The notes under the pieces: model-generated | The model's input: only the letters and a program-made list of their open reading frames with translations | What the model was told of the DNA's origin: nothing | Databases searched by the model: none | Position numbers and translations under genes: made by a program | Shown: one piece after another, positions 1,318 through 61,972 of the stretch | How the letters are laid out: every line of letters starts with the position of its first letter | Position numbering within the stretch: the first letter of the stretch is position 1 | DNA from: Bacillota bacterium | Lineage (GTDB): Bacteria; Bacillota; Clostridia; UBA1381 | Assembly (NCBI GenBank): GCA_024685565.1 | Contig: JAIKVQ010000182.1 | Location: 11,672-75,671, forward strand | Direction: 5' to 3' | DNA: 64,000 bases

Positions 1318-2007
1318 ATGACAAGAACTTATTCAAAAATTAACTTTGATGTCAAAGGCACAAAACGAAAAGAACTCGTCAGCCTTATTTCAAATTTCAC
1401 AGGCTGCGAGGCAAAGTACAAAGGCGCACCGTCATTTGCCTACGAAGTGGATCGCTTCACCATCGACAAAAACGGAGCGGTCACATTTGACGACAGAGCG
1501 GACAGCGAGGTCATTGAAAGGTTGCTTGAAATGCTTTATGACAACGGCTTTACCGCAGAAAACGGCGACACGGAAAGTACTGCTCCGGGGACAGAATCAG
1601 AAGACATAGGGCTTTCTATTAACATTCCTATTGATAAGGTGAATGTTGAAAATATGGTAGCCTTGCTCAAAACCAAGGGCGACCTTATAAAAACGGCACT
1701 TGGTATAGATAATGTCGATGTTGTGCCGAAGGATGAACTGGTGGAGTTTCCTTGGTTCGGAGAGGTTAATGCCGAGGATGCAATGGCATATTCCCAATTC
1801 ATATCCGCTCTTTGTAGCTTTACAAAAAAGCAGACAAGGATAAACGCTGTATCTGCAAAAGCAGAGAATCCGAAATACGCATTCCGATGCTTCCTCTTAC
1901 GGCTCGGTTTCATTGGTGACGAGTATAAGAAGACAAGGAAGATCTTGCTCCGAAACCTTGAGGGAAGCTCCGCTTTTAAGAATGGAAGGAAAAACGAGGT
2001 GCAGTAA
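1318..2007 (+). CDS. conserved hypothetical protein, first gene of the amidoligase module; C-terminal LLRLGFIGDE motif
   Basis: Start moved from the track's GTG at 1288 to the ATG at 1318 (AGGAGG SD; matches the start of paralogue 61066..61758, MTQTNAKINF). N-terminal ~80 aa are nearly identical between the two copies. Confidence 0.7.
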   Translation: MTRTYSKINFDVKGTKRKELVSLISNFTGCEAKYKGAPSFAYEVDRFTIDKNGAVTFDDRADSEVIERLLEMLYDNGFTAENGDTESTAPGTESEDIGLSINIPIDKVNVENMVALLKTKGDLIKTALGIDNVDVVPKDELVEFPWFGEVNAEDAMAYSQFISALCSFTKKQTRINAVSAKAENPKYAFRCFLLRLGFIGDEYKKTRKILLRNLEGSSAFKNGRKNEVQ

Positions 2008-2008
2008 A

Positions 2009-2227
2009 ATGGCTGACAGATTTTTTTCGGTCACTAAATGTGACCGCTGTGGAGGCTCCCTTGAGGGCGGCAGAATAATGTCGATGTTTAACGAGGACTG
2101 CATTTGTATGGACTGTCATAAAAAAGAACGGGAGCTTCCAGAATTCAAACAAGCAGCCGATGCCGAGCTTGCGGAAATCAAGCGTGGGAATTACAATTTT
2201 CCGGGCATCGGATACCCGGAAAAATAG
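2009..2227 (+). CDS. small zinc-ribbon protein (CxxC ... CxxC)
   Basis: MADRFFSVTKCDRCGG...NEDCICMDCHKKE. The ATG overlaps the upstream stop region. Paralogue at 61751..61969. Confidence 0.65.
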   Translation: MADRFFSVTKCDRCGGSLEGGRIMSMFNEDCICMDCHKKERELPEFKQAADAELAEIKRGNYNFPGIGYPEK

Positions 2228-2338
2228 GTGTAATATACACAATAATACTTTTTATCATTGTGTAGTAATGGTATTACAATTAATCCTTTTCAGAGCTAAT
2301 ATGGACACAACAAAAGCAAAGAAAAGGAGATAAAAACA
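2228..2338 (+). promoter_or_regulatory. repeated regulatory cassette copy A (palindrome + promoter + leader)
   Basis: IR ATACACAAT(2234-2242)/ATTGTGTAG(2257-2265). -35 TTACAA 2274-2279, 17-nt spacer, -10 TAATAT 2297-2302. AAGGAG SD before the ATG at 2339. Confidence 0.6.
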
Positions 2339-3280
2339 ATGAACGAAAAGACAAGAAAATTCATCGAGGAAATGAAAAAGCAGACCATCGGGATTGAAAT
2401 CGAGATGGCAAACATCACAAGGGAAAAAGCCTGCAGAGTGGTTGCAAAATACTTCGGCACAGAGAACACAGTAAAGTACGAGCGCGGCGGTTACGACACT
2501 TGGAGTTGCAAGGACAACCAAGGCAGAACTTGGAGGATAACAAGGGACAGCAGCATAATAGCAAACAGCGATGCAGAAAAAGCCGAGCTTGGAACACCGA
2601 TCCTTACCTACGACGACATTGAGGACTTGCAAGAGATAGCAAGGCAGTTGAGACACGCCGGGGCGATTTCAAACCCCAGACACGGATGCGGAGTACATTG
2701 CCACATTGGAGCAAACGGACACAACCCCAAAACACTCCGAAACCTCGCAAACATCATGGCAAGCCACGAGGAGATTTTAGCAAAGGCATTAAGCATTGAC
2801 AACAACAGGCTTGAGCGTTGGTGCAAAAAGGTAGACAGAGAATTCCTTGAAAAGCTAAACCGCAGAAAACCCAAAACAATGGCGAAGCTTGCAGACCTTT
2901 GGTACCAAGGTGCATACGGCTCAAGAAGCGATCATTACAACAGCTCAAGATACAGAATGCTAAACCTCCACGCCACCTTCACAAAGGGTACGGTTGAATT
3001 CAGACTTTTCCAATTCGACAACCCTTCGGAAGGACGCAGAGGCGGCATTCACGCAGGACAGCTTAAAAGCTACATTCAAATTTGCCTCGCCCTTTCCCAA
3101 ATGGCAAAAACACAGAAATCGGCAAGCTCAAGACCACAACAGGACGAAAACCAAAGATACGCAATGAGAACTTGGCTCCTACGCCTCGGCTTCATCGGAG
3201 ACGAATTCAAAACAGCAAGGGAACTCTTTACAAAGCGACTCACGGGAGACACAGCCTTCAGAAACGGCAGACCCGCCTAA
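2339..3280 (+). CDS. putative amidoligase (glutamine-synthetase-like Amidoligase_2 family)
   Basis: 313 aa. Recognised from family memory (N-terminal GIEIEM..ITR, HCHIG, TVEFRLF blocks) and from the conserved neighbourhood with a GGCT gene. Paralogue at 62105..63046. Confidence 0.6.
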   Translation: MNEKTRKFIEEMKKQTIGIEIEMANITREKACRVVAKYFGTENTVKYERGGYDTWSCKDNQGRTWRITRDSSIIANSDAEKAELGTPILTYDDIEDLQEIARQLRHAGAISNPRHGCGVHCHIGANGHNPKTLRNLANIMASHEEILAKALSIDNNRLERWCKKVDREFLEKLNRRKPKTMAKLADLWYQGAYGSRSDHYNSSRYRMLNLHATFTKGTVEFRLFQFDNPSEGRRGGIHAGQLKSYIQICLALSQMAKTQKSASSRPQQDENQRYAMRTWLLRLGFIGDEFKTARELFTKRLTGDTAFRNGRPA

Positions 3281-3355
3281 AGCGGAACCTCCCGACACCA
3301 ACCCGCCCCGGCGGGCTTAAGGTGGTAGAAGAACGATTTGAAAGGAGATTTTTTT

Positions 3356-3826
3356 ATGAAAAACGAAAAAAGATACTACATCGCATACGGGAGCAACTTG
3401 AGCGTTACCCAAATGCATTGGCGTTGCCCCGATGCAAAGGTTGTAGGCAAAGGCGAATTGAATGATTGGAGGCTCCTTTTTAAGGGCAGCAAAACAGGCT
3501 CCTACCTAACTATTGAAAGGTGCAAAGGCAGCAAGGTTCCTGTTGCGGTATGGGAAGTCAGCGAAAGGGATGAGGCTGCACTTGACCGATATGAGGGCTA
3601 TCCATCCTTTTACTACAAAGAAGAGCTTACCTTCGAGTTTAGAAGCGTTATAACGGGCAAAAAGCACAAAGCGATAGTTTTCGTTTACATCATGCACGAG
3701 GACAGACCGCTCGGTATTCCATCAGAGCATTACCTAAAAATTTGTGCCGCAGGCTATTATCTTTTCAAATTCGATACAAAATACTTGAAAGAAGCCCTGC
3801 ACTATAGCGAGGAGGTGATGGAATGA
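3356..3826 (+). CDS. gamma-glutamylcyclotransferase (AIG2/GGACT-like)
   Basis: YIAYGSNL near the N-terminus and a downstream ...VAVWEV..RDEAALDRYEGYP block, typical of the GGCT fold. ATG 3356 lies 8 nt after AAAGGAG; the TTG at 3338 lies inside the SD. Paralogue at 63122..63589. Confidence 0.75.
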   Translation: MKNEKRYYIAYGSNLSVTQMHWRCPDAKVVGKGELNDWRLLFKGSKTGSYLTIERCKGSKVPVAVWEVSERDEAALDRYEGYPSFYYKEELTFEFRSVITGKKHKAIVFVYIMHEDRPLGIPSEHYLKICAAGYYLFKFDTKYLKEALHYSEEVME

Positions 3827-4029
3827 TGAAGAACGAAACACACGCAGAAACGGTATGCCCAAAATGCGGTAAGGTTTACTATGATGCACCTGCCCTTTCG
3901 AGAGCGGACAATGAAACCCTTATTTGCCCCGACTGCGGAATCCGAGAAAGTCTTTCCGTTTTCGGACTGAGCGAAGAAGAACAGGAACATATCATAAATA
4001 CCATTCATAGAACCTACAAAGCGCAATAA
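3823..4029 (+). CDS. small zinc-ribbon protein (CPKCG ... CPDCG)
   Basis: 68 aa with two CxxC pairs. Overlaps the GGCT stop. Paralogue at 63586..63786. Confidence 0.65.
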   Translation: MMKNETHAETVCPKCGKVYYDAPALSRADNETLICPDCGIRESLSVFGLSEEEQEHIINTIHRTYKAQ

Positions 4030-4035: not shown

Positions 4036-4155
4036 CATATTATACACAATTGCCGCTCTGAACATTTGTGTAGTAATGGTATTACATTTAATCCTTTTTA
4101 GAGTTAATATCACACTAACGAAAGGGCAAGAAGCCCGAAAAAGGAGGAAACAAAA
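4036..4155 (+). promoter_or_regulatory. repeated regulatory cassette copy B
   Basis: IR TATACACAAT/ATTTGTGTA. -35 TTACAT 4082-4087, 17-nt spacer, -10 TAATAT 4105-4110. Leader CACACTAACGAAAGGGCAAGAAGCCCGAAAAAGGAGGAAACAAAA then ATG. Confidence 0.6.
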
Positions 4156-4422
4156 ATGACAACATTCACAACCATCGAAAACCTTGACGAAAGACTTAGA
4201 CCCGCATACGATGCACTCATTCGCTACAAAGAGCACGTTTGCTTGGCAAGGCAAAACTACAAGGGCGAATACGAGGCGGAAATTTACGAGTTTATTGACG
4301 ACCCGGAGATTGACGGATTTCCCGAAATCGAATGCCGCATAGCATTGATTGAGAAGTCGGAAACAAAGTTCCCTGATAGCGGATCGGCAATAAAATGGTG
4401 CTTTGGAGTTCTTGAAAAATAA
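4156..4422 (+). CDS. hypothetical protein (88 aa), cassette gene
   Basis: ORF directly behind a conserved leader/SD and followed by a hairpin terminator. Confidence 0.6.
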   Translation: MTTFTTIENLDERLRPAYDALIRYKEHVCLARQNYKGEYEAEIYEFIDDPEIDGFPEIECRIALIEKSETKFPDSGSAIKWCFGVLEK

Positions 4423-4440
4423 GAAGAACGACAAAAGGCA

Positions 4441-4470
4441 AAGAGCCAATCAAGGCTCTTTTGCTCGTTT
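4441..4470 (+). terminator. rho-independent terminator (part of the repeat scaffold)
   Basis: AAGAGCC(4441-4447) loop GGCTCTT(4454-4460) followed by a T-rich tail. Confidence 0.6.
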
Positions 4471-4480
4471 GAAATTACGC

Positions 4481-4611
4481 ATAATATACACAAATACCGC
4501 TCCAAAATGTTGTGTAATATATATCTCAAAAATGACTTGATATATATCGTTTTTAGAGGTAATATCACACTAACAAAAGGGCAAGAAGCCCGAAAAAAGG
4601 AGGAAACAAAA
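4481..4611 (+). promoter_or_regulatory. repeated regulatory cassette copy C
   Basis: IR ATAATATACACAA/TTGTGTAATATAT. -35 TTGATA 4537-4542, 17-nt spacer, -10 TAATAT 4560-4565. Conserved leader with GGGCAAGAAGCCC hairpin. Confidence 0.65.
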
Positions 4612-5067
4612 ATGACAATGGATGAGAAATACCCAAGGCTTATAGGGTGTACGGAAAACGCTGAAACAGAGCTGCATAGCGTTAAAGAGGTTGCAGAGTT
4701 TATTTGCAAGAACGGGCTTGTAGAGGATTTGAAAATCCTAACACCAAGCGGAATGCAGTTTATAACGACCTTCGGACTTTTCCTTGACAAGATAGCGGAT
4801 TTGGAATACCGCACAGAGCTTCTCAAAATACTGATTCCGATGCAGAAGGAAATCGAAAAAGGAATATTTGGAGGAACGGATGAGGAGCGGATCGAAAAGG
4901 AGATAGTCGATTACCTTGAATCTGAACAATACGACATAGATGCGGCAATCGAAATAAGGTGGATACAGGAAAACGGCGGATGCACACCTTCAAGGGAATA
5001 CATAGAGGAACTCCTCAAAGAGCGGAAGCGCACCGAAATTGAAAAGGCGATAAAGGGGACGAATTAA
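4612..5067 (+). CDS. hypothetical protein (151 aa), cassette gene
   Basis: Start moved from the track's 4507 to the ATG at 4612, directly after the conserved AGGAGGAAACAAAA leader. The 4507 extension would read through the promoter cassette. Confidence 0.6.
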   Translation: MTMDEKYPRLIGCTENAETELHSVKEVAEFICKNGLVEDLKILTPSGMQFITTFGLFLDKIADLEYRTELLKILIPMQKEIEKGIFGGTDEERIEKEIVDYLESEQYDIDAAIEIRWIQENGGCTPSREYIEELLKERKRTEIEKAIKGTN

Positions 5068-5116
5068 AATAAAGGCTTTTAGGATAACGCTCCTGCAAAA
5101 GAACATCGAATAAAAG

Positions 5117-5147
5117 GCAAAGAGCCGAAAGAGGCTCTTTTGCTCGT
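5117..5147 (+). terminator. rho-independent terminator (repeat scaffold)
   Basis: GCAAAGAGCC / GGCTCTTTTGC hairpin with a T-rich tail. Near-identical to the one at 4441. Confidence 0.6.
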
Positions 5148-5148
5148 C

Positions 5149-5278
5149 ATAATATACACAATTTCCTTTCCGAATTATTGTGTAATATATATCTCGAAAA
5201 TGACTTGATATATAGTTGTTTTAGAGGTAATATCACACTAACAAAAGGGCAAGAAGCCCGAAAAAGGAGGAAACAAAA
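5149..5278 (+). promoter_or_regulatory. repeated regulatory cassette copy D
   Basis: IR ATATACACAAT/ATTGTGTAATAT. -35 TTGATA 5205-5210, 17-nt spacer, -10 TAATAT 5228-5233. Conserved leader. Confidence 0.65.
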
Positions 5279-5668
5279 ATGGCAGATTTATCAACAACTT
5301 ATGAGCTTTGGGATGAGCTCACAGAGGCACTTCACGGAACGGACAACGAATACCGCTACGGATTAAGCACAGATGGACTTCGGAGACCTTGCCTGGTTGA
5401 TTTTGAAACAAACACGGAAATCAAAGGCAACGAAGCGGTGCAGGAAGCCATCACAAAAATTATAGCAAAGGCAGACCTACAGGACTTCTTAAGCACTTTC
5501 GGATTCGGCATCAGCGTAGAGGAACTTGCGGAAAGGGCATACCGAAAATTGGATACACAAAGGCATAAGGTTTGCATAGTAAATTCCAGGTACCTTGAGG
5601 TGGACGGAACGACATTCCTTTTAAGCAAGAGCAAGAAGCACGGCGGCTGGATAGCCAAAGAAATCTAA
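5279..5668 (+). CDS. hypothetical protein (129 aa), cassette gene
   Basis: ATG directly after the conserved leader; followed by a hairpin. Confidence 0.6.
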   Translation: MADLSTTYELWDELTEALHGTDNEYRYGLSTDGLRRPCLVDFETNTEIKGNEAVQEAITKIIAKADLQDFLSTFGFGISVEELAERAYRKLDTQRHKVCIVNSRYLEVDGTTFLLSKSKKHGGWIAKEI

Positions 5669-5683
5669 ACGCAAAACAAAGCG

Positions 5684-5714
5684 GAGCGAGCCGAAAGGGG
5701 CTCTCTTCCTCGTT
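5684..5714 (+). terminator. probable terminator hairpin (repeat scaffold)
   Basis: GAGCC gaaagg GGCTC core with a flanking T/C-rich tail. Homologous position to the terminators at 4441 and 5117. Confidence 0.45.
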
Positions 5715-5715
5715 A

Positions 5716-5846
5716 TAAAATACACAATTTCCTCACCGAATTATTGTGTAATATATATCTCGAAAATGACTTGATATATAGTACATTTAGAGGTAATATG
5801 AACACAACAAAAGGGCAGAAAGCCCGGATTAAAAGGAGGAAACAAA
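5716..5846 (+). promoter_or_regulatory. repeated regulatory cassette copy E
   Basis: IR AAATACACAAT/ATTGTGTAATAT. -35 TTGATA 5771-5776, 17-nt spacer, -10 TAATAT 5794-5799. Leader variant GGGCAGAAAGCCC. Confidence 0.65.
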
Positions 5847-6107
5847 ATGCGTTACATTGACCACAGCAAATGCACATCAGCTTTTCAGAAAGGAGAAGAC
5901 CGCGAAATCAAGAGGCTTGGAAAACTCACAAGGACAGCCACAAGGATTGCAGAGCAGAACAAACTCGGAGTTTTGAAAAACCGCCAAGGCTACTTCAGAA
6001 TCATAAGAGAATGCGGACTTGGAGCTTACGAGGATTTCTTTTCCGACCTTGCAGAGGTTGACAGCTTTTTCAAAAACCTCGACAGCCACAAGGCAACAAA
6101 GTATTAA
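5847..6107 (+). CDS. hypothetical protein (86 aa), cassette gene
   Basis: ATG after an AAGGAGG leader; followed by two hairpins. Confidence 0.6.
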   Translation: MRYIDHSKCTSAFQKGEDREIKRLGKLTRTATRIAEQNKLGVLKNRQGYFRIIRECGLGAYEDFFSDLAEVDSFFKNLDSHKATKY

Positions 6108-6287: not shown

Positions 6288-7808
6288 GTGAACTTTATAG
6301 AATGCTTATCTCATACAAAGGGTACATGGGCAGGTAAGCCGTTTGAACTCATCGACTGGCAGGAGCAGATTATTCGGGACATTTTCGGTACTTTGAAACC
6401 TAATGGGTATAGGCAGTTTAATACCGCATATATAGAAATTCCAAAGAAAATGGGGAAGAGCGAACTTGCTGCGGCAGTCGCTCTTTTGTTGTGTTGCGGT
6501 GACGGTGAAGAACGAGCAGAGGTTTATGGTTGTGCTGCTGACAGGCAACAGGCATCTATCGTTTTTGAAGTTGCAGCAGATATGATAAGAATGTGTCCCG
6601 CACTCAATAAGCGTGTAAAAATCCTGACTGCAACCAAGAGAATCATATATACGCCGACAAATAGTTTTTACCAAGTGCTGTCCGCCGAGGCTTATTCAAA
6701 GCACGGTTTTAATATTCATGGCGTCGTTTTCGATGAGCTACATACACAACCAAACAGGAAACTGTTTGATGTTATGACTAAAGGATCAGGCGATGCGAGA
6801 ATGCAACCGTTATACTTTCTCATAACAACAGCCGGGACAGATACAAATTCTATCTGTTACGAAACACATCAGAAGGCTATTGATATCCTTGAGGGGCGGA
6901 AAAGTGATCCTACATTTTATCCTGTGATTTACGGAGCGGCAGAAGATGATGACTGGACAGATCCTGCGGTCTGGAAAAAGGCTAATCCATCACTCGGTAT
7001 TACAGTTGGGATTGACAAAGTAAAAGCCGCCTGTGAATCTGCAAAGCAAAATCCCGCCGAAGAAAACTCTTTCAGGCAGCTTCGGTTAAACCAATGGGTA
7101 AAACAAGCGGTTAGGTGGATGCCTATGGAGAAGTGGGACAATTGTGCGTTTGCTACGGACGAGGATGAACTCTATGGGCGTGTATGCTATGGTGGACTTG
7201 ACCTTTCATCAACTACGGACATAACGGCGTTTGTGCTTGTGTTTCCTCCAATTGACGAGGAAGATAAATATGTTGTTCTGCCATATTTTTGGATACCGGA
7301 AGACAATATTGATCTTCGTGTACGGCGCGACCATGTTCCATACGATGTATGGGAGCGGCAAGGCTATCTTAAAACTACAGAGGGCAATGTGGTGCACTAT
7401 GGTTTCATAGAGAAGTTTATCGAAAGCCTCGGTGAAAGATACAACATCCGTGAGATTGCATTTGACCGATGGGGAGCGGTGCAAATGGTACAGAACCTTG
7501 AAGGTATGGGCTTCACGGTTGTTCCCTTCGGACAGGGCTTTAAGGATATGTCTCCGCCGACAAAGGAGCTTATGAAGCTTGTGCTTGAAGAGCGGATAGC
7601 ACATGGTGGGCATCCCGTTTTGCGGTGGATGATGGACAACATATACATTCGTACAGACCCTGCCGGAAACATCAAACCAGACAAAGAAAAATCGACAGAA
7701 AAAATTGACGGAGCGGTTGCAACGGTAATGGCACTTGACAGGGCGATACGCTGCGGTAACGACACATTGGAGAGCGTATATGATAACCGAGGATTGTTTA
7801 TAATTTGA
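6288..7808 (+). CDS. terL: terminase large subunit (Terminase_1-type)
   Basis: 506 aa. The HTKGTWAGKPFELIDWQ block, Walker-like IEIPKKMGKSELAA, VVFDELH, and position upstream of the portal all fit. The start is uncertain (see finding). Confidence 0.85.
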   Translation: MNFIECLSHTKGTWAGKPFELIDWQEQIIRDIFGTLKPNGYRQFNTAYIEIPKKMGKSELAAAVALLLCCGDGEERAEVYGCAADRQQASIVFEVAADMIRMCPALNKRVKILTATKRIIYTPTNSFYQVLSAEAYSKHGFNIHGVVFDELHTQPNRKLFDVMTKGSGDARMQPLYFLITTAGTDTNSICYETHQKAIDILEGRKSDPTFYPVIYGAAEDDDWTDPAVWKKANPSLGITVGIDKVKAACESAKQNPAEENSFRQLRLNQWVKQAVRWMPMEKWDNCAFATDEDELYGRVCYGGLDLSSTTDITAFVLVFPPIDEEDKYVVLPYFWIPEDNIDLRVRRDHVPYDVWERQGYLKTTEGNVVHYGFIEKFIESLGERYNIREIAFDRWGAVQMVQNLEGMGFTVVPFGQGFKDMSPPTKELMKLVLEERIAHGGHPVLRWMMDNIYIRTDPAGNIKPDKEKSTEKIDGAVATVMALDRAIRCGNDTLESVYDNRGLFII

Positions 7809-8932: not shown

Positions 8933-10300
8933 ATGGGAAAAATCGCAAATTTTTTCAGGTCAAGAGATAAGCCGCAAAACAGGACGGCAGGCTCTTCATA
9001 CAGTTTTTTCTTTGGCGGCACGACGGCAGGAAAGGCTGTAAACGAGATGTCCGCAATGCAGATGACAGCGGTGTATTCATGTGTCAGGATACTTGCAGAG
9101 GCTGTTGCTGGGCTTCCGCTTCACCTTTACAGATACACGAAAGCCGACAATAAGGTTAAGGCAATAGAACATCCGCTTTATCATATTTTGCACGATGAAC
9201 CGAACCCCGAAATGTCAAGCTTTGTATTCAGGGAAACCCTTATGACGCACCTGCTTCTGTGGGGTAATGCCTATGCACAGATCATCCGAAACGGCAAAGG
9301 CGAGGTGATAGGACTGTACCCTCTGATGCCGAACAGAATGTCGGTTGACCGTGACCGTGAGGGGAGGCTGTGGTACACATACACAAGGATGTCGGAGGAA
9401 GCACCGACAATGAAGGGAACAACGGTGAGACTCTATCCGTATGATGTGCTACATATACCGGGGCTTGGCTTTGACGGACTGGTCGGGTATTCGCCTATAG
9501 CAATGGCTAAAAACGCAATCGGTATGGGACTTGCCTGTGAGGAATACGGTGCGCGGTTTTTTGCAAACGGAGCAGCACCGAGCGGTGTTTTGGAGCATCC
9601 GGGAACAATAAAAGATCCGCAGAAGATCCGCGAAAGCTGGAACGCCACATTTAAAGGCTCAGGTAACGCACACAAGGTCGCAGTTTTAGAAGAGGGGATG
9701 AAGTTTTCAAGCATAGGAATTGCGCCAGAACAGGCGCAATTTTTGGAAACACGCAAGTTTCAGATAAATGAGATAGCTCGAATTTTCAGAGTGCCGCCAC
9801 ACATGGTCGGTGATCTTGAAAAGTCGAGCTTTTCTAATATTGAGCAGCAATCGCTGGAATTTGTAAAATACACTCTTGAGCCTTGGATAGTACGGTGGGA
9901 GCAGTCGATTATGCGTGTGCTTTTATCACCTGACGAAAAGCGTGAATACTTTGTGAAATTCAATCTTGAGGGACTATTAAGGGGCGATTACCAGAGCCGT
10001 ATGCAAGGGTATGCAACAGCAAGGCAGAACGGCTGGATGTCGGCAAACGATATACGGGAGCTTGAGAACCTTGACAGGATCCCTGCAGAGCTTGGTGGGG
10101 ATTTGTACCTTGTTAACGGGAATATGAAAAGACTGCAGGATGCGGACTTGGCAGATAGTATCCCAAGCTATAACGGAGAAAAGGAGGATGACGATGAAAA
10201 CGAAAAAGATGAGGAAGTTTTGGAACTGGACGAAAAACGAGGAGACGGGGGAGCGGATCCTTCGACTGAACGGAACAATCGCAGAGGAAAGCTGGTTTGA
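8933..10300 (+). CDS. portal protein (HK97 family)
   Basis: 455 aa. MQMTAVYSCVRILAEAVAGLPLHLY-type N-terminal block, size and position. The 3' end overlaps the protease gene by about 107 nt. Confidence 0.85.
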   Translation: MGKIANFFRSRDKPQNRTAGSSYSFFFGGTTAGKAVNEMSAMQMTAVYSCVRILAEAVAGLPLHLYRYTKADNKVKAIEHPLYHILHDEPNPEMSSFVFRETLMTHLLLWGNAYAQIIRNGKGEVIGLYPLMPNRMSVDRDREGRLWYTYTRMSEEAPTMKGTTVRLYPYDVLHIPGLGFDGLVGYSPIAMAKNAIGMGLACEEYGARFFANGAAPSGVLEHPGTIKDPQKIRESWNATFKGSGNAHKVAVLEEGMKFSSIGIAPEQAQFLETRKFQINEIARIFRVPPHMVGDLEKSSFSNIEQQSLEFVKYTLEPWIVRWEQSIMRVLLSPDEKREYFVKFNLEGLLRGDYQSRMQGYATARQNGWMSANDIRELENLDRIPAELGGDLYLVNGNMKRLQDADLADSIPSYNGEKEDDDENEKDEEVLELDEKRGDGGADPSTERNNRRGKLV

Positions 10301-29781: not shown

Positions 29782-29861
29782 ATTGTCTTGATATTGTTTG
29801 AGTTCAGAGGTAATATGCATATACGCAATTACGTAGCCGATTTTTGGCAGGAAGGATAGTT

Positions 29862-31463
29862 ATGAGGGATTCAGGAAAAGAGGTCTATTCAGGCGGACTA
29901 TATTTGCGTTTATCACGAGAAGATAGGATGCAAAATAATGAAAGCATGAGTATATCAAATCAAAGAAAAATTACAGTAAGATATGCAACAGAGAATAAAA
30001 TTGAGATTGTTGAAATCTATATTGATGATGGTTATTCAGGTGTTAGCTTTGAAAGACCTGCATTCAATAGGATGATCAAGGATCTTGAGAACGGAAAAAT
30101 AAACTGTGTTATTGTAAAAGATATGTCTCGACTCGGCAGGAATGATGTTGAGGCAAATAGATATTACGAGGATGTATTTTTAACAAAGCATTATCGATTC
30201 ATTGCTATTGATGACAATGTTGACACATTAAGAGGATATGAGCAGCATGCAACCTTTAAAAACATGTTTAACTCAATGTATCCGAGAGATATTTCTCAGA
30301 AAACTCATTCAGCTTATATGGCATTAGCTCATAATGGCGAAAAAGTTGGGAAAGCCCCTTATGGATTAAAACATGATCCTGACAATAGGTATCATCTTAT
30401 CATTGATGAAGAAGCTGCAAAGGTTATAAGATATATATTTAGTTTAGCAATGAAAGGGATGTCAAGAAAAAAAATAGCAAGAATTTTAAGAGAAGAAAAA
30501 ATATTAAGTCCTGCGGCATACGCTAAAAGAAGCGGATGTAAAAGATATGAAAAGTACGTTAGTGCTTATGATGATGATTATATGTGGTGCGATAAAACGG
30601 TCGGTCAAATACTAATGAATGAGTTTTATATTGGAAGCAATGTTGCTAATACTACTCGTCGGTCATTCAAAACAGGGAAGTGTGAAAAATTACCAAGAGA
30701 AGAATGGGTTATCGTGCCCGATGTTCATGAAGCTATTATTTCAAAGGAAGTTTTCTATAGAGTACGAGATATTTTTAAGAGTCGTAGAAGAGGAACAAAA
30801 ATGGAAACCGTACAGTTATTTGCTGGATTAGTAAAATGCAAGGACTGTTCAAGATCAATGAATTATACTGGTGGCGATGTGCCTTTTTATACATGCGGAA
30901 CATATAGGAATAAAGGAAAAAAATACTGTTCTTCACATAGAATAAGGTATGAGGATGTTTATAACTGTGTGTTGCAGGACATACGGGATAAAACTTCCAA
31001 GCTTGAAAAAAATCGAGAAGAATTCATTGTTGCGGCATCAAGCAACTTTCAAATCAGTTTAAAGGAAGAGACTCGGAATTTAGAAAAAAGGTTAAAAGAA
31101 TTAACGCAGCGTTATGGTGAAATTGATATTCTCATACAAAAAACATATGAAAATTCCGTGCTTGGAAATTTATCAGGCGAGAGAATGTCGCTACTCATAG
31201 CAAATTATGAAAATGAGCAGATAGAAGTAAAAGAAGAACTCGAAAAGATAAAATTAGAAATAAAAACTATTCAGGAAAAGCACAAAAATGTTGTAGATTT
31301 CACTAAACTAATAGAACAGTACATTGGTGTGGAAAAAATAACAATGGAAATGGCTTTAGAGCTTATAGAAAAAATCGAAATAGGCGAAAAGTATATAAAA
31401 AATGGTAGGACATATCAGGATATTGATATAAGTTATCGATTCGTTGGTAAAATTGCGGTATAA
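29862..31463 (+). CDS. large serine recombinase (integrase)
   Basis: N-terminal resolvase domain (LYLRLSREDR...SISNQR), recombinase domain, Cys-rich zinc ribbon (CKDCSRSM...YTCGTY..KYCSSH), C-terminal coiled coil. Confidence 0.85.
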   Translation: MRDSGKEVYSGGLYLRLSREDRMQNNESMSISNQRKITVRYATENKIEIVEIYIDDGYSGVSFERPAFNRMIKDLENGKINCVIVKDMSRLGRNDVEANRYYEDVFLTKHYRFIAIDDNVDTLRGYEQHATFKNMFNSMYPRDISQKTHSAYMALAHNGEKVGKAPYGLKHDPDNRYHLIIDEEAAKVIRYIFSLAMKGMSRKKIARILREEKILSPAAYAKRSGCKRYEKYVSAYDDDYMWCDKTVGQILMNEFYIGSNVANTTRRSFKTGKCEKLPREEWVIVPDVHEAIISKEVFYRVRDIFKSRRRGTKMETVQLFAGLVKCKDCSRSMNYTGGDVPFYTCGTYRNKGKKYCSSHRIRYEDVYNCVLQDIRDKTSKLEKNREEFIVAASSNFQISLKEETRNLEKRLKELTQRYGEIDILIQKTYENSVLGNLSGERMSLLIANYENEQIEVKEELEKIKLEIKTIQEKHKNVVDFTKLIEQYIGVEKITMEMALELIEKIEIGEKYIKNGRTYQDIDISYRFVGKIAV

Positions 31464-32295: not shown

Positions 32296-33315
32296 ATGGG
32301 AGCTAAATCTAAATATTTTATTGTGGCAATTCTTGCTTTTGTATTCATGTGTACCGCTTGCTCTTTTAGCAATAGTAGCAATTCAGTAATCGTGACCCAA
32401 ACGCCGCAACCTGAAATAACAAACGAAGCTCCATCTGAAAAAGAAGCTGAAGCTGAATCGAAAGCGGATAAAGAAACCCTCCCCGTTATAACTACAGCCA
32501 TTTCTCTTGCGGACATACCCGAATATTCAGGTCTGCCGTTTGTCGAGATAAATAATAATGTTCCCTTTTTTACTACAGATGAGCTTGTATCTGTAGCTTT
32601 TGAAAAATACAGCTCTTTGGACAGTAAGGGTCGATGTGGTGTTGCTTATGCAAATGTATGCCAGGAGTTAATGCCTACAGAGGAACGAGGCTCTATCGGT
32701 ATGATAAAGCCGAGTGGTTGGCATACGGTGAGATATGAATTTGTCGATGGCAAATACTTATATAACCGCTGTCACTTGATAGCCTATCAGCTTGCAGGTG
32801 AAAATGCCAACGAGAGAAACTTAATCACAGGCACTCGCTATTTAAATATAGAAACTATGCTTCCTTTTGAAGGACGAGTTGCGGATTATGTAATGGCAAC
32901 AAACAACCATGTTCTCTATCGGGTGACCCCGTTTTTTGACGGCGATAACCTTTTAGCTACGGGTGTCCTTATGGAAGGATACTCTGTCGAGGACAACGGC
33001 AAAGGCATCTGTTATAACGTGTTCTGCTATAATGTTCAGCCAGGGGTCGTAATCAATTATGCCAACGGTGATAGTTATGCGGAGGTGGAAGCAACCGAAG
33101 AGCCTGTCGTTCAAGAAAGGTCAATGCCCATTCCTGCCGTAGGTGAAACCACGGACGAAGTGACGTATATCGGAAACAAAAACACTAAAAAGTTTCACTA
33201 CCCAAATTGCAGTAGCGTGTCCGATATGAAAGAGAAAAACAAAGTGCCATTATACGGCACGAGAGAAGAAGCAATCGCACAGGGGTATTCTCCCTGCGGT
33301 AGATGCCATCCTTAA
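32296..33315 (+). CDS. secreted DNA/RNA non-specific endonuclease with C-terminal Ada-like Zn-binding domain
   Basis: N-terminal signal peptide (possibly a lipoprotein). NRCHLIAYQLAGENANERNLITGTRYLN nuclease block. C-terminal KFHYPNCSSV...GYSPCGRCHP. Confidence 0.75.
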   Translation: MGAKSKYFIVAILAFVFMCTACSFSNSSNSVIVTQTPQPEITNEAPSEKEAEAESKADKETLPVITTAISLADIPEYSGLPFVEINNNVPFFTTDELVSVAFEKYSSLDSKGRCGVAYANVCQELMPTEERGSIGMIKPSGWHTVRYEFVDGKYLYNRCHLIAYQLAGENANERNLITGTRYLNIETMLPFEGRVADYVMATNNHVLYRVTPFFDGDNLLATGVLMEGYSVEDNGKGICYNVFCYNVQPGVVINYANGDSYAEVEATEEPVVQERSMPIPAVGETTDEVTYIGNKNTKKFHYPNCSSVSDMKEKNKVPLYGTREEAIAQGYSPCGRCHP

Positions 33316-34152: not shown

Positions 34153-37100
34153 ATGAATATGATACAGAATGATTTGAAGTTTTTTACCAATGAGCCTGAA
34201 CGTGACCTTTATAGCAGGTTTTCCACCATATTAAAGAGCAACACACAATTCTTTGATGTTTTAGTGGGATACTTTAGAACGAGTGGCTTTTTCAAGTTGT
34301 ATGAAGCTCTCGATACCGTTGAGAGTATTCGTGTTTTAGTCGGTTTGAATGTAGACAAATATACCGTCAAAATACTCGACCAAGCAAGAGAAGAACTTTC
34401 TATAACCTCCGCTTCTGCCGTTGAGAGCAAAGAATTACTGACAAAAGAAATCGAGACAGAATTTGAATTGTCCGATGCAACCTCCGAAGTTGAAAAAGGT
34501 GTTAGATATTTTATCGATTGGCTGAAAAGCGGAAAACTCCAAATGAGAATGTATACCGATGCACCTATTCATGCAAAGGTGTATATCATGAGAAAAGACC
34601 CAGAAAAAGTGCCTGATATGTACGGAAGCGTAATAACGGGGTCAAGCAATTTTTCGGAAGCAGGTCTTCTCAATAATTTGGAATTCAATGTTGAACTTAA
34701 GGATTCGGCTGATGTAAAATTTGCATTGGCTCGTTTTGAAGATTTATGGGAACGAAGCGTTGATGTAAGAGATACATATATAGAAGCTGTCGAAAAAAAC
34801 ACATGGATGCGAAATGATATAACCCCATATCAATTATATTTGAAAACGCTTTATGAGTTTTTTAAAGAAGAAATTAACGCTGATAAAGAGAACTTTGAAA
34901 CGCTCCTTCCCGAAGGTTATATGAGGCTCCAATACCAAATAGATGCTGTTACACAAGCCCGAAAGAAACTTGATGCTTATAATGGCGTTTTTATATCTGA
35001 TGTGGTCGGTCTCGGAAAGACTTATATTTGCGCCATGCTTGCAAATTCATTCAAGCGAGACACATATAAATTGTTTATATGCCCACCTGTCCTTGTTGAC
35101 TATTGGAGGGGCGTTCTACAGGAATTTGATGTGTCACGATGTGATGTAGAATCGCTTGGTAAACTCGATAAAATAATAGCTCGTGGGACTGATAAATACA
35201 GTTATGTATTTATTGACGAAGCTCACAGGTTTAGAAATAGCGGGACAGATAGCTTCACAAACCTACACCAGATTTGTCGAGGAAAAAAAGTTGTCCTTAT
35301 TTCCGCTACGCCCATAAATAATTATACGAGCGATATAGAAAATCAAATATACCTTTTCCAAGCGAAACAAAGCGGTACAATCAATGGAATTAAAAACATT
35401 GAAGGCTTCTTCCGTGGATTAAACTCAAAGCTCACGCAAAAAGCAAAGGGTACACCTGAATATATGAGACAACTGCGAGAAAATTCCGAGGTTATTAGGG
35501 ATAAACTCATTCGGGAGGTTATGATAAGGCGAACAAGGTCTGAAGTACAGAAATACTATAAAGATGACCTTGAAAAACAAGGACTTTCTTTCCCAACAGC
35601 AGGAAGCCCTGAACGAGTTATATATGAATTTGACGAGCAGACTGACGAAACATTCAAAGAAACCATAGAGGCAATTAAGGACTTTAAATATGCCCGTTAT
35701 ACACCCTTGCTCTTTTTAAAGGACAAAGAAAAGTATGCACAAATGTTGGTAGCGCAACGTAACATGGGTGGTTTCATGAAAGGCATTCTTGTTAAGAGAC
35801 TTGAAAGCAGTTTTTATGCCTTCAAAATGACACTTAACAGGTTCATTGAATCCTATGAAAAGTTTATAAAAATGGTCAAGGCTGGCAAAGTATACATAAG
35901 CAAGAAAGTAAATGTTTATGATTTGCTTGATGATGGCAACACGGAAAAACTCATGTATTTAATTGAGCAAGAAGACATCATGGTGTTTAACACTTCCGAA
36001 TTCGAGCCGAGATTCATCAAACTACTGGAGATGGATTTAGCACAACTTAAATACTTGAGAGACTTGTGGGAATTAATAAAAAACGACCCAAAAATAGAAA
36101 AGTTTAAGGATGAGCTTACAAGCAACCCAATAATCCGTGATAAAAAAGTTATTGTATTTACCGAATCAACAGAAACTGCTGAATATTTGCACGATGGTTT
36201 AAAGGACACATACGGAGATAGAATTGTTTATTTCAGCGGTCAAAGCAGTAATGCTCTAAAAAGTGACATTGAGGACAGTTTTAACCCGAAATACAAAGAC
36301 AAAGACAACGATAAGTATGACATTTTAATCACAACCGATGTATTGGCAGAAGGTATTAACTTACATAGAGCAAATATACTGTTTAACTATGACCTCCCGT
36401 GGAATCCAACGAGAATAATGCAAAGGGTTGGTAGAATTAATCGTGTCGGGACTGAATTTGAAAGAATTTATGTATATAACTTCTTTCCAACTTCTCAAAG
36501 CGCAAAGCATATACCATTGGAAGAGAGAATTTTAGAAAAACTGCAATCCTTCCATGACACGCTTGGCGAAGATTATAAATACCTTTCAGACGCTGAAGAG
36601 GTTTCACCTCAAAAACTGTTTTCTGACCTTTCTCAAAATCTTGACGATGAGGAGGAAAGTACAAATCCCGAACTGGCGTATTTGACTATTATTCGTCAAA
36701 TAAGAGATAATGAGCCTGAATTATTTGCAAAAATAAAACGGCTTCCCAAAAAAGCAAAAGCAGGAAAACACGCTGTGTCGAATGCGGATTCGACTGTATC
36801 ATTCATAAGAAAAGGTGCATTAAAACTGTTTTTTGAAACAAAAGACGGAGAAACAGAACAGCGTACCTTTATGGAAGCAATACAAAAAATTGAATCCGAC
36901 AAAGACGAAAAAGCTGTATCTGTGGCATCCTTGTACTATGACCATCTTAAAGCAAACAGTGATGCATTTGATAAGGCACTCATTGCGGAGGAAGAAATCA
37001 CTATAGAGCGACCAATGGTAGCAGGTAATGATGCAAAAGTTATTAAAACCCTCAAGGCAATGAAATCTGACAATCGTCTTACCGATGAGCAAGAGGCGAC

Positions 37101-37332
37101 AATAGACTTGCTTATTAAACGATGGGAAGACGGCGAAATCCCTGCAAAAATATCAAAGGACATTGTTAAAACAGTAAAATTAGCATCTGATGTTTTGACT
37201 TTGTATTACGACATAATGAAATTGATTCCCGATTCTTATCTTGAAGAAAGAAAGGAAAACAAAAAAACCGTTGACGGCGAAAAACAAATTGTTCTCTCTT
37301 GTTACATGAAAGGCGGTAGCAATAATGGCTGA
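34153..37332 (+). CDS. PLD-family (HKD) nuclease domain fused to SNF2/SF2 helicase
   Basis: HKD motif APIHAKVYIM...GSSNFS. Helicase motifs DVVGLGKT, DEAHRFRN, SATPINN, QRVGRINRVG. Confidence 0.85.
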   Translation: MNMIQNDLKFFTNEPERDLYSRFSTILKSNTQFFDVLVGYFRTSGFFKLYEALDTVESIRVLVGLNVDKYTVKILDQAREELSITSASAVESKELLTKEIETEFELSDATSEVEKGVRYFIDWLKSGKLQMRMYTDAPIHAKVYIMRKDPEKVPDMYGSVITGSSNFSEAGLLNNLEFNVELKDSADVKFALARFEDLWERSVDVRDTYIEAVEKNTWMRNDITPYQLYLKTLYEFFKEEINADKENFETLLPEGYMRLQYQIDAVTQARKKLDAYNGVFISDVVGLGKTYICAMLANSFKRDTYKLFICPPVLVDYWRGVLQEFDVSRCDVESLGKLDKIIARGTDKYSYVFIDEAHRFRNSGTDSFTNLHQICRGKKVVLISATPINNYTSDIENQIYLFQAKQSGTINGIKNIEGFFRGLNSKLTQKAKGTPEYMRQLRENSEVIRDKLIREVMIRRTRSEVQKYYKDDLEKQGLSFPTAGSPERVIYEFDEQTDETFKETIEAIKDFKYARYTPLLFLKDKEKYAQMLVAQRNMGGFMKGILVKRLESSFYAFKMTLNRFIESYEKFIKMVKAGKVYISKKVNVYDLLDDGNTEKLMYLIEQEDIMVFNTSEFEPRFIKLLEMDLAQLKYLRDLWELIKNDPKIEKFKDELTSNPIIRDKKVIVFTESTETAEYLHDGLKDTYGDRIVYFSGQSSNALKSDIEDSFNPKYKDKDNDKYDILITTDVLAEGINLHRANILFNYDLPWNPTRIMQRVGRINRVGTEFERIYVYNFFPTSQSAKHIPLEERILEKLQSFHDTLGEDYKYLSDAEEVSPQKLFSDLSQNLDDEEESTNPELAYLTIIRQIRDNEPELFAKIKRLPKKAKAGKHAVSNADSTVSFIRKGALKLFFETKDGETEQRTFMEAIQKIESDKDEKAVSVASLYYDHLKANSDAFDKALIAEEEITIERPMVAGNDAKVIKTLKAMKSDNRLTDEQEATIDLLIKRWEDGEIPAKISKDIVKTVKLASDVLTLYYDIMKLIPDSYLEERKENKKTVDGEKQIVLSCYMKGGSNNG

Positions 37333-44475: not shown

Positions 44476-44501
44476 AACAATACCTCTTTCTCTTTGTATA
44501 A

Positions 44502-44777
44502 TTAAATTTCTCTTCTTTCTACAAACCATCTGCCGATTACATTTCCCGTCAGGTTTGTACTTCTTTCAAAAAATAAATAACTCTGTATTCCATTAACATA
44601 TATCGTATATCGGTCACCCTGACCTCCTGCTTTCATAGCGGCGGCTTGACAAATGTTTGTCACTTTGTCAATCGGGTATTTCGTGCCGTCCTCCCAAACG
44701 AGGAGCTTGGGTATCATCCGTCCGTCCTCATCGAAGGAAGCGTTGACCGCAACATAAACCTTCGCATCCATTTTCAT
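44502..44777 (-). CDS. hypothetical protein (91 aa) downstream of ImmA
   Basis: ATG overlaps the ImmA stop; GGAGAGGA SD. Confidence 0.55.
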   Translation of the reverse strand: MKMDAKVYVAVNASFDEDGRMIPKLLVWEDGTKYPIDKVTNICQAAAMKAGGQGDRYTIYVNGIQSYLFFERSTNLTGNVIGRWFVERREI

Positions 44778-58891: not shown

Positions 58892-59680
58892 ATGTTTGAA
58901 AAAGTAAACCCTGCCCATCCCGATAAGGTGGCAGACCGAATTGCAGGTGCGCTTGTCGACCTCGCATACGAAAAAGAGAATAACCCGAAAATCGCCGTGG
59001 AAGTTTTGATAGGTCACGGCGTTTGTCATGTCATTGCGGAATCGTCCGTGGAGCTTGATGCGGTCGAGGCTTGCAAGGCTGTCCACAGAATCGCAGGAAA
59101 CGACCTGATGGTCGATTTCAGATGCGTAAAGCAGGACAGCCACCTTGCCGAAAACCAAGCTGAAGGTTTCCGTTGCGGTGACAACGGCATCTTCAAAGGC
59201 GTACCCGTTACCGAGGAGCAAAACGCTCTTTGTGAGATAGCGCAAAGTGTGTATAACACATACCCGTTTGACGGCAAGTACATTTTAGACGAGGCTCGCC
59301 TCATTATATGTCAGAGCAATGCAAGCAACGAGGAACTCTCCTTCGTATATCCCGAAGCCGAAATTAACCCTCTCGGTTTTTGGACGGGCGGCACGGATGT
59401 CGATACGGGTGCGACCAATCGAAAGCTCGGAAGCGATATGGCAGACAGCGTGACAGGCGGCGGCTTGCACGGCAAAGACCTGTCCAAAGCCGATGTCTCT
59501 GTCAACATCTATGCATGGATTAAGGCGCAGGAAACACACAAACCCGTGGAGCTTTGCTGTGCTATCGGTGACAAAACCGTTGACGGAAAGCCGTATTCAG
59601 AAATCGTGGAAATCGCAAGAGAGTATATCCGCTCCGTGGGCGGCTTCGAGAAGTTTGCGGAATGGGGGCTGTTAAGATGA
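58892..59680 (+). CDS. compact S-adenosylmethionine synthetase (MetK) homologue, 262 aa
   Basis: By eye it aligns with MetK blocks: AHPDKVADRIAGALVDL (GHPDKIADQISDAVLDA), CGDNGIFKG (GAGDQGLMFG), GGGLHGKDLSKADVS (GGGAFSGKDPSKVDRS). Confidence 0.7.
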   Translation: MFEKVNPAHPDKVADRIAGALVDLAYEKENNPKIAVEVLIGHGVCHVIAESSVELDAVEACKAVHRIAGNDLMVDFRCVKQDSHLAENQAEGFRCGDNGIFKGVPVTEEQNALCEIAQSVYNTYPFDGKYILDEARLIICQSNASNEELSFVYPEAEINPLGFWTGGTDVDTGATNRKLGSDMADSVTGGGLHGKDLSKADVSVNIYAWIKAQETHKPVELCCAIGDKTVDGKPYSEIVEIAREYIRSVGGFEKFAEWGLLR

Positions 59681-60944: not shown

Positions 60945-61065
60945 GCTGTAATATAGACAGTTTTTAAGGCGAATCTTTGTGAGGTATTTAGTGTCAAAAA
61001 CACTTGATAAATAAGGCTTTCAGAGTTAATATGTCGCTAACAAAAAAAGAAGGAGGTCATTTGAA
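60945..61065 (+). promoter_or_regulatory. repeated regulatory cassette copy G
   Basis: -35 TTGATA 61004-61009, 17-nt spacer, -10 TAATAT 61027-61032. Leader AAAGAAGGAGG. Confidence 0.6.
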
Positions 61066-61969: not shown

Positions 61970-61972
61970 CTG

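Follow-up and report, generated by a model that had tools for sequence, protein, structure and literature searches.

The 64,000-nucleotide stretch of DNA analysed here, referred to below as the window, comes from a Bacillota bacterium of the clostridial group UBA1381 (contig JAIKVQ010000182.1, positions 11,672 to 75,671), and it carries two diverged copies of a five-gene block that combines a predicted amidoligase with a predicted gamma-glutamylcyclotransferase (GGCT). Copy A (1318-4029) and copy B (61066-63786) each comprise five colinear genes on the plus strand, in identical order. In copy A, gene A1 (1318-2007) encodes an acidic protein of 229 amino acids (aa), which we identify below as a predicted, catalytically dead amidoligase paralogue; A2 (2009-2227) an acidic, Cys-rich, putative Zn ribbon of 72 aa (CxxC...CxCxxC); A3 (2339-3280) an Amidoligase_2 protein of 313 aa, that is, a predicted carboxylate-amine ligase of the glutamine synthetase-like kind; A4 (3356-3826) a GGCT/AIG2-like enzyme of 156 aa; and A5 (3823-4029) an acidic Zn-ribbon protein of 68 aa. 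The corresponding genes of copy B are B1 (61066-61758), B2 (61751-61969), B3 (62105-63046), B4 (63122-63589) and B5 (63586-63786).

A first-pass annotation of the window had described this repetition of gene order at 61066-63786, along with long identical protein runs and the same gene overlaps in both copies. The order is borne out by the open reading frames and by a single colinear blastn match of 2829 nt between the copies (76.5% identity, E = 0), and the quoted runs are found in both. Protein identities between A and B for genes 1 to 5 are 68, 86, 79, 65 and 75%, and the ratios of non-synonymous to synonymous substitution (dN/dS) are 0.21, 0.08, 0.22, 0.13 and 0.09 (dS 0.6-1.7), which indicates purifying selection on all five genes. 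The overlaps agree only in part. Both the A4/A5 and the B4/B5 junctions have a 4-nt overlap (ATGA in copy A), and since the start of A5 thereby overlaps the stop of A4 the two are expected to be translationally coupled; genes 1 and 2, however, are separated by a 1-nt gap in copy A and overlap by 8 nt in copy B. The flanks had been called completely different. In blastn of the 8-kb flanks the only further matches are copies of a repeated promoter element, and the two flanks prove to be two common versions of one conserved island, as described below. Similarly, the suggestion that the module is selected as a unit stands as regards purifying selection on each gene, but not as regards the unit, because the five genes are not co-conserved as one.

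The Pfam family PF12224 (Amidoligase_2), which has a cut-off of 22 bits, is matched by the product of A3 with 180.9 bits (E = 5e-53) and by that of B3 with 188.9 bits (E = 2e-55, or 1.9e-55 unrounded), and the alignments span profile positions 2-244 of 245. The residues E20 and E22 (motif ExE, first strand), H120 and H122 (HxH), and E220 and R222 (ExR, last strand) of A3 are invariant across 43 homologues, and A3 is, as judged from these features, a catalytically intact Amidoligase_2 enzyme, in keeping with the initial identification of the 313-aa protein as an amidoligase. An AlphaFold2 model of A3 is confident (predicted local distance difference test, pLDDT, 89; predicted template modelling score, pTM, 0.89), and a sequence search of A3 against solved structures gave no match. 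The protein is strongly basic, with an isoelectric point (pI) of 9.6 and a net charge of +16; its close homologues all have a pI >8 and the median charge of the family is +10.6. An apparent insertion of about 430 nt in A3 at several genome loci was an artefact in which the match had joined the A3-like C-terminus of A1 to A3; it was not an intron and had no Rfam match.

Pfam PF06094 (GGACT/AIG2), with its cut-off of 22.8 bits, is matched by the product of A4 at 51.7 bits (E = 1.6e-13) and by that of B4 at 42.1 bits (E = 1.6e-10), and A4 matches PHROG 2520 with E = 2e-53. Aligned to human GGCT (2pn7, E = 4e-6), A4 retains the YGSNL motif and the catalytic Glu, with 'YEG' standing against 'QEG', and of 104 homologues, 101 retain YGSNL and 96 the Glu segment. 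The GGCT fold that had been assigned to the 156-aa protein is upheld by these matches, and A4 is predicted to be an intact GGCT/AIG2 enzyme.

The first gene, whose product the first-pass annotation had left as a 230-aa protein without identity, bears the NCBI name 'virulence protein' and belongs to no Pfam family, but comparison of profiles (hhalign) aligns A1 8-225 with A3 19-312 at a probability of 99.9% and E = 1.4e-31. The A1 family, of 145 members, has nonetheless lost the catalytic motifs: ExE has become [KN]xN, HxH has become [TAIS]x[QTESD], ExR has become [DS]FP, and the RYxxLN catalytic segment of the amidoligase is deleted from A1. In their place the family conserves motifs of its own (R17-K18, YxGAPxFAY and FxWF). 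From this comparison A1, which also matches PHROG 2443 (E = 3e-58), is a full-length amidoligase homologue that is predicted to be catalytically dead and to be no enzyme of this kind. Its AlphaFold2 model (pLDDT 80) finds weak, non-specific alpha/beta matches only in the PDB, Dop among them. The stretch best conserved between A1 and A3 lies outside the Pfam model, in a C-terminal two-helix motif (LLRLGFIGDE[FY]K..R) with 42% identity; reading this as a helix-hairpin-helix DNA-binding motif is no more than speculation, as no Pfam match of that kind appeared even at E up to 10. Charge is opposite, and conserved, in the two paralogues: while the amidoligase is basic, A1 is acidic (pI 5.3, family median charge -8.8), as are A2, A5 and the DUF4314 and DUF6809 proteins that occupy the same part of the block in relatives. 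A1-like genes also occur without amidoligase or GGCT, in Streptococcus Javan phages, Erysipelothrix phi1605, Gardnerella AB1 and several of the phage genomes labelled NatCom; in both such loci that were inspected, Streptococcus phage Javan191 (4566-5249) and NatCom_11393 (4539-5240), the gene lies between DNA methyltransferases and TerL. These solitary occurrences imply that A1 has a function of its own.

The two Zn-ribbon proteins had been put forward as candidate substrates of the ligase. A5 matches PHROG 2945 (E = 7e-21) and keeps its CxxC...CxxC pattern in 86 of 88 homologues, but the last three residues are highly variable among those 88 and include no terminal Glu or Gln. A2 has no Pfam family and matches the C-terminal part of PHROG 27033, a family of GGCT and Zn-ribbon fusions, with E = 1.5e-30. 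A2-like proteins were found only in the window, in one further surveyed locus (L036) and in two genomes of Candidatus Heliusvirales; an A2-like gene follows a second GGCT paralogue in one locus (L132) and an A1-like gene in another (L133). The C-terminus of A2 is not conserved, since it reads ..YPEK in both window copies, ..GIRG in L132 and ..GIREK in L133. A2-like and A5-like proteins share weak similarity (E = 1e-3), which suggests that they are distantly related ribbons, each paired with a GGCT. Neither A2 nor A5 matches a LysW or Pup model in NCBIfam. With no conserved terminal Glu or Gln, the proposal that they are substrates is not upheld, and they are better read as partners of the GGCT.

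Between the ligase and the GGCT gene lies a candidate structured RNA. The spacer from A3 to A4, 70-120 nt in length, is more conserved than the coding sequence that flanks it, with the consensus CCACCUU..GACCGC-UUCG-GCGGUC-UUAAGGUGG-UAGAAGGG-N4-CCCUUC-GGAAAGGA. A helix, P1, encloses a hairpin, P2, and is followed by a conserved UAGAAG, the whole overlapping the ribosome-binding region of A4. The stem of P2 is CCCGC/GCGGG in copy A and GACCGC/GCGGUC in copy B, so that pairing is kept by two-sided changes; the inner pairs of P1 covary in an anchored analysis (AA/UU, UC/GA, UU/AA, CA/UG, UA/UA and GGCAG/CUGCC), and RNAalifold recovers P2 together with a further hairpin, P3. A covariance model built from P2 and P3 was searched against 100 sources (1.24 Mb) and gave exactly one hit per locus in 80 of them, all on the plus strand just after A3. 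In the window these are 3291-3349 (40.2 bits, E = 3.4e-7; a local fold shows P1 and P2) and 63057-63115 (44.9 bits, E = 2.2e-8; fold z-score -3.5), and 78 related loci outside the window have one hit each (for example L104, 8971-9034). On the alignment to the model, which is fitted to that model and should be read accordingly, 93.8% of cells pair and nine of 12 pairs show compensatory changes, values reached by none of 500 shuffles, while slid controls pair at 41-69%. As a check independent of the model, the exact 16-mer TTAAGGTGGTAGAAGG was found in at least 120 viral contigs of IMG/VR, where the C-terminus of A3 ends less than 120 nt upstream in 116 of 118 and A4 starts less than 150 nt downstream in 108 of 117. 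None of the 4227 covariance models of Rfam 15 matched at its gathering score, and searches at E-value thresholds gave chance-level hits far below the cut-offs.

Both P1 and P3 pair a purine run resembling a Shine-Dalgarno site with a run resembling its complement, beside the true ribosome-binding site, and for this reason we read the RNA as a device for translational control of the gene that follows the ligase, and so as a candidate for a translational regulator or a riboswitch. P3 is absent from the window copies, in which UAGAAGA can pair instead with a U-run around the Shine-Dalgarno site and start codon. In four viral contigs the amidoligase and the RNA motif (on the plus strand) are followed by a protein of 131-145 aa in place of the GGCT, which begins with a DUF4314 domain and ends in an extension that is conserved (..LVGEFTDTVRRQILAVR..); these genes lie at 3643-4047 in L141, 6369-6764 in L157, 1102-1497 in L159 and 2373-2810 in L184. 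Stop-codon read-through fusing A3 to A4 was considered and rejected: in copy A the conserved UAG falls in frame, and the spacers have lengths that three does not divide.

The arrangement of promoters and repeats divides the block in two. A promoter-like site, TTGATA-N17-TAATAT, stands upstream of A1 on the plus strand (1259-1287), and a site of the same family stands upstream of B1, also on the plus strand (61004-61032). This family has seven sites in the window against 0.65 expected, starting at 1259, 4537, 5205, 5771, 29788, 61004 and 62028, and they precede A1, B1, B3, three cargo genes and a serine recombinase. Before A3 there is a regulatory region (2228-2338, plus strand) with an inverted repeat, ACACAA-N15-TTGTGT (2237-2263), promoter-like -35 and -10 elements and a Shine-Dalgarno site; the equivalent region before B3 (61970-62104, plus strand) has the inverted repeat at 61979-62006 and the promoter at 62028-62056. 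The inverted repeat, ACACAA-N15/16-TTGTGT, occurs at six sites in the window against 0.08 expected (2237-2263, 4044-4071, 4488-4515, 5156-5183, 5722-5749 and 61979-62006), and is, from its sequence and placement, a candidate operator. A repeated unit composed of the inverted repeat, TTGATA-N17-(AGAGG)TAATAT, a GGGCAAGAAGCCC hairpin and a strong Shine-Dalgarno site (AGGAGG) precedes A3, B3 and every downstream cargo gene, whereas the promoter before A1, B1 and the serine recombinase lacks the inverted repeat. Of 122 related loci, 34 have the repeat ahead of A3, and in none does it lie ahead of A1, A4, A5, DUF4314 or TerL. This distribution of promoters and repeats indicates that A1 and A2 form one transcription unit, and A3, A4 and A5 another.

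How far the block is conserved was surveyed in 46 IMG/VR loci, 80 species genomes and contigs with Pfam annotation for an A1 homologue. Relatives of the block are present in at least 464 species genomes, and the protein clusters for A1 and for A3 number more than 8000 each. The canonical order is HNH-TerS-(MetK)-ParB methyltransferase-(C5 methyltransferase)-A1-DUF4314-(DUF6809)-A3-A4-A5-(Nmad4)-TerL. A4 directly follows A3 in 110 of 111 loci, and A5 follows A4 in 96 of 111 (it is missing in 14%), but the remainder is looser; A1 is upstream of A3 in 72 of 102 loci, and the slot between them holds DUF4314 in 65, DUF6809 in 13 and the A2 Zn ribbon in none of the 102. The expectation that all five genes would be co-conserved therefore fails in this survey of gene neighbourhoods, given the absence of A2 from that slot and an A1 that is found in 72 of 102 loci and also without A3 and A4. 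A variant order, A1-A3-A4-DUF4314, in six loci (L057, L059, L060, L061, L064 and L069) leaves the slot between A1 and A3 empty and puts DUF4314 in the place of A5, as if the small acidic partners could stand in for one another. The link between ligase and GGCT extends further: one protein, P0415, appears to be a fusion of amidoligase and GGACT, with the GGACT match at 21.3 bits lying just below the Pfam cut-off of 22.8, and the Amidoligase_2-GGCT pair recurs in unrelated Arthrobacter phages and LUZ24-like Pseudomonas phages. Three other apparent fusions were set aside: P0180 (DUF4314 with amidoligase) runs across the promoter region, probably through faulty gene calling, P0122 has internal duplications that mark an assembly artefact, and P0408, in which half of a C5 methyltransferase is joined to a truncated amidoligase, looks chimeric.

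Temperate phages of the Candidatus Heliusvirales type in gut Bacillota carry the block as standard cargo; the nearest phage records are 'NatCom' genomes of that order, and the block occurs twice in the window because two different prophages of this lineage share one contig of a Bacillota metagenome-assembled genome. Both types of flank, C5 methyltransferase/ribbon-helix-helix/SLOG-A1 and MetK/ParB methyltransferase-A1, recur in other genomes, so that they are no sign of a mobile cassette and the block is a syntenic part of one lineage. Plasmids yielded module matches in four of 72,556 records, none of them mobilizable, and an origin in conjugative elements is rejected on this ground. Several genomes harbour the module two or three times over, in diverged form and in different prophages, namely L065 and L067 in Allobaculum mucilyticum, L057 and L102 on one contig, and L064, L088 and L099 in one metagenome-assembled genome, and accordingly the two copies here reflect common polylysogeny and no special duplication.

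Pfam scans of selected neighbouring proteins, together with the synteny of relatives, confirm that the block sits between terS and terL and beside DNA methyltransferases, as had been proposed. The right part of the first prophage (1 to about 31.5 kb) comprises a C5 methyltransferase fragment, a YspA/SLOG protein, module A, cargo genes, TerL (6288-7808) and a large serine recombinase (29844-31463); a small open reading frame on the minus strand had been called ribbon-helix-helix in the first-pass annotation, and an open reading frame of 455 aa (8933-10300) occupies the portal-gene position of related phages. Four small cargo genes lie between module A and TerL. The first encodes an Nmad4 protein (4156-4422) and the others (4612-5067, 5279-5668 and 5847-6107) are without a Pfam family; all four, from 4156 to 6107, have their own copy of the promoter unit before them, and the first three are followed by a terminator-like stem-loop (AAAGAGCC..GGCTCTTT; GGGGCTCT after 5668). 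The left part of the second prophage (46-64 kb) carries a Y-family polymerase, DUF2800, PolA, VapE, SNF2, HNH, TerS, a MetK-like protein, a ParB methyltransferase and module B. The MetK-like protein (58892-59680) has 262 aa and matches the N-terminal domain of S-adenosylmethionine synthetase only, a full synthetase having about 380-400 aa, and so it may not be a standard enzyme of that name; its gene adjoins the ParB methyltransferase in many related phages and is conserved. Of the thymidine hypermodification pathway, neither a 5-hydroxymethyldeoxyuridine kinase nor aGPT-Pplase was found among the selected neighbours scanned, both prophages being incomplete in the window and no dedicated search having been made. 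Between the prophages lies a host defence island (32-45 kb) with a NucA-like endonuclease carrying an Ada Zn domain (32296-33315), a PLD-SNF2 helicase (34153-37332), an Eco57I/MmeI-like methylase (37325-41161) and, on the minus strand, a GmrSD type IV restriction enzyme (42721-44529). GmrSD targets modified DNA, and its proximity may be relevant should these phages modify their own.

The enzyme pair at the heart of the block has been encountered before. The description of Pfam PF12224 reportedly states the pairing of amidoligase with AIG2. Iyer, Abhiman, Burroughs and Aravind reportedly described, in 2009 (Mol Biosyst 5:1636), a neighbourhood of Amidoligase_2 and an AIG2-family cyclotransferase in Firmicutes phages and prophages; the pair here is identical in kind, and the block is a member of that neighbourhood. 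Module B of Tn6164 in Clostridium difficile, tabulated in 2012, has the identical order MetK, N4/N6 methyltransferase, 'virulence-related protein', amidoligase, AIG2/GGCT and terminase (PMC3485107), and the prophages of C. clostridioforme LM41, tabulated with this same order in 2024, list an amidoligase twice, and a GGCT (PMC11318856). The paper on the order Candidatus Heliusvirales does not mention the block, and a Klebsiella 'amidoligase' paper (2025-26) concerns an ATP-grasp enzyme and is irrelevant. To specialists the existence of the block would be unsurprising. What appears not to have been described before is the 'virulence protein' as a dead paralogue, the pairing of GGCT with Zn ribbons, the alternation of DUF4314 and A2 in one slot, the division into two transcription units and the intergenic RNA, to which may be added the charge complementarity of the paralogues and their partners.

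The proteobacterial and actinobacterial phage clusters of the LUZ24-like and Arthrobacter type (COOH-NH2 ligase, Amidoligase_2, class II glutamine amidotransferase-like protein, ATP-grasp and AIG2) have the Amidoligase_2-GGCT link in common with the block. Unlike the block, they include extra ligases and a glutamine-amidotransferase-like protein and are found among the early or replication genes of lytic phages; no dead paralogue, Zn-ribbon partner, DUF4314 or RNA motif was seen in them, and the covariance model had no hit in an Arthrobacter locus (L137). Gamma-glutamylcysteine synthetase (gamma-GCS), enzymes of the Dop/PafA type and glutamine synthetase all use ATP to activate the gamma-carboxyl of glutamate. 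The likeness of A3 to them is a weak fold match of its model, and A3 has conserved acidic, His and Arg motifs; it is much smaller than glutamine synthetase, at 313 aa, lacks the N-terminal domain of that enzyme and matches no solved structure by sequence, while in contrast to the PafA-Dop system the block has no Pup-like partner and A3 carries a family-specific C-terminal two-helix motif in common with A1. In butirosin and ergothioneine biosynthesis (BtrJ/BtrG and EgtA/EgtC) a ligase adds a gamma-glutamyl group that is later removed, by the GGCT-fold BtrG or the Ntn-amidohydrolase EgtC. In phages Amidoligase_2 has two alternative partners that agree with this scheme of adding and then removing, but the likeness is one of logic and not of membership; BtrJ is an ATP-grasp enzyme acting on a substrate bound to an acyl carrier, whereas the block has no carrier protein, decarboxylase or other tailoring enzyme.

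Our best proposal for the function of the block, tentative and held at low confidence, is that a macromolecule is reversibly modified in a gamma-glutamyl-type reaction and that RNA gates the expression of the removing enzyme. With ATP, A3 would activate a carboxylate group, which is most likely the gamma-carboxyl of glutamate, since this is the group on which its weak fold matches act, and would couple it to an amine on a macromolecular and probably polyanionic target, whether protein or nucleic acid. A target of this sort, and not a free metabolite, is suggested because the ligase is conserved as a basic protein, the accessory proteins are acidic and adaptor-like, and the GGCT goes with Zn ribbons. 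The pair of A4 and its Zn ribbon would strip the gamma-glutamyl group as 5-oxoproline, either as an eraser or as a deprotection step, the family being one that cleaves gamma-glutamyl amides (Pfam PF06094); the RNA element would set GGCT production independently of the ligase, as a covarying RNA specific to the junction between A3 and A4 suggests. Targeting, regulation or mimicry would fall, as subunits, to the dead paralogue and the small acidic proteins. A functional link between ligase and GGCT is indicated because of their adjacency in nearly every locus surveyed, the apparent fusion in P0415 and the recurrence of the pair in unrelated phages, while neighbours such as MetK, the DNA methyltransferases and Nmad4 suggest a phage-side role in modification or counter-defence, exercised with the neighbouring MetK, ParB methyltransferase, C5 methyltransferase and Nmad4 island, and not one in host metabolism. 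The proposal in its fullest form, that the module carries out reversible gamma-glutamylation of phage or host DNA or RNA, or of a protein, with the eraser timed by an RNA responsive to a ligand or a protein and with the ligase directed or restrained by the dead paralogue and the acidic proteins, we consider unlikely to hold in every part.

Several observations weigh against a modification of this kind. The top PDB fold matches of the A3 model, to the gamma-GCS domain of GshF, Dop and glutamine synthetases, are all weak (E = 1e-3 to 0.2, TM score 0.36-0.42). No nucleic-acid-binding domain was detected, the C-terminal motif of A1 and A3 having no helix-hairpin-helix match in Pfam, and the Zn-ribbon proteins are acidic, which is unusual among nucleic-acid binders; the basic charge of A3 may merely complement its acidic partners. 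A1 may have a function unrelated to A3 and A4, given the A1-like genes that occur without them. Synteny with methyltransferases is inherited within one phage lineage and is therefore weak evidence for a shared function. A writer and an eraser in one operon look futile unless they are apart in time or in target, and that separation is assumed. Finally, the literature searched contained no experimental function for the block, in agreement with the first-pass annotation, which had stated that none was established.

The strongest alternative is that the ligase acts on a small molecule or on the cell wall, producing a metabolite like a gamma-glutamyl peptide or a linkage in the peptidoglycan stem peptide, for instance as a surface change that blocks superinfection. 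Known GGCT enzymes act mostly on small gamma-glutamyl compounds, BtrJ and BtrG are a textbook precedent for a gamma-glutamyl protecting group that is added and then removed, and the LUZ24-like and Arthrobacter clusters, with their additional ligases and glutamine-amidotransferase-like protein, look like multi-step small-molecule pathways. The Firmicutes version, however, has a single active ligase, and by eye no obvious signal peptide or membrane segment is present in the block proteins; the roughly +10 charge of the ligase, the dead paralogue and the Zn-ribbon and DUF4314 adaptors would also be left unexplained. This is the published prediction of Iyer et al. 2009 for phage amidoligase clusters, as relayed in PMC11945000 and PMC11318856, though one drawn from comparative genomics. 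We regard it as possible but on the whole rather doubtful.

The promoters bear on a second alternative, in which a ligase expressed in the lysogen toxically modifies an essential component of the host or of an invader, the GGCT reverses the modification and the RNA sets their ratio, the block being a toxin and antidote or a means of abortive infection. Its sigma-70-like promoters and operator are its own, in the manner of a moron, the same type of promoter precedes the integrase, translation of the eraser is apparently under separate control, and DarT and DarG are a textbook precedent for reversible modification. A paper on C. clostridioforme prophages also places the amidoligase under 'phage defence', although without evidence (PMC11318856). 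Against this, A1 to A4 match no defence model of PADLOC-DB 2.0 and A5 has weak, generic Zn-ribbon hits only; the position of the block is fixed across the lineage, where defence islands typically have a patchy distribution, and the module is nearly absent from plasmids and other mobile elements. The chance that the block works in this way seems small.

Smaller still, we think, is the chance that A2 and A5, candidate substrates in the first-pass annotation, are carriers or tags loaded by the amidoligase, as LysW is with LysX or Pup with PafA. The ribbons, of the CPxCG...CxDCG type, resemble that of LysW; like LysW they are small Zn-ribbon proteins encoded beside an amidoligase; being acidic they complement the basic ligase, and the closest folds to A3 include Dop, a member of the PafA family. 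But LysX belongs to the ATP-grasp enzymes, and the conserved C-terminal Glu (EDWGE) that LysW requires is absent from A2 and A5, the variable C-termini of both and the failure to match a LysW or Pup model having been noted above. Moreover, hardly any locus has A2, about one in seven lacks A5, and the Zn ribbons go with the GGCT, through translational coupling, the second GGCT and A2 pair and the PHROG 27033 fusion, and not with the ligase. Least of all do we credit a role as auxiliary metabolic genes adjusting host glutamate, glutathione or nitrogen metabolism, which suits the category of PHROG 2520 ('moron, auxiliary metabolic gene and host takeover') but is very improbable, because to our knowledge Clostridia generally lack glutathione and because the dead paralogue, the adaptors, the basic ligase, the RNA leader and the fixed place among DNA-modification and packaging genes would all go unexplained. 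Readings of this sort appear in PMC11318856 and PMC10945688.

The block is very common, and it belongs to Candidatus Heliusvirales, a widespread order of human-gut phages that is among the most prevalent. Its function is now a more tractable problem, with a pseudo-enzyme identified, two units that can be separated and an RNA element that can be probed for a ligand or a binding protein; that ligand might itself reveal a metabolite of the pathway. Should the target be a metabolite, the module would be an ordinary accessory pathway, and should it be DNA or a component of defence, the chemistry would be a new form of phage modification or counter-defence. If the proposal of reversible gamma-glutamylation is true in its fullest form, the modification of nucleic acid or protein that these phages encode would be of a new class and would have a riboregulator of its own.

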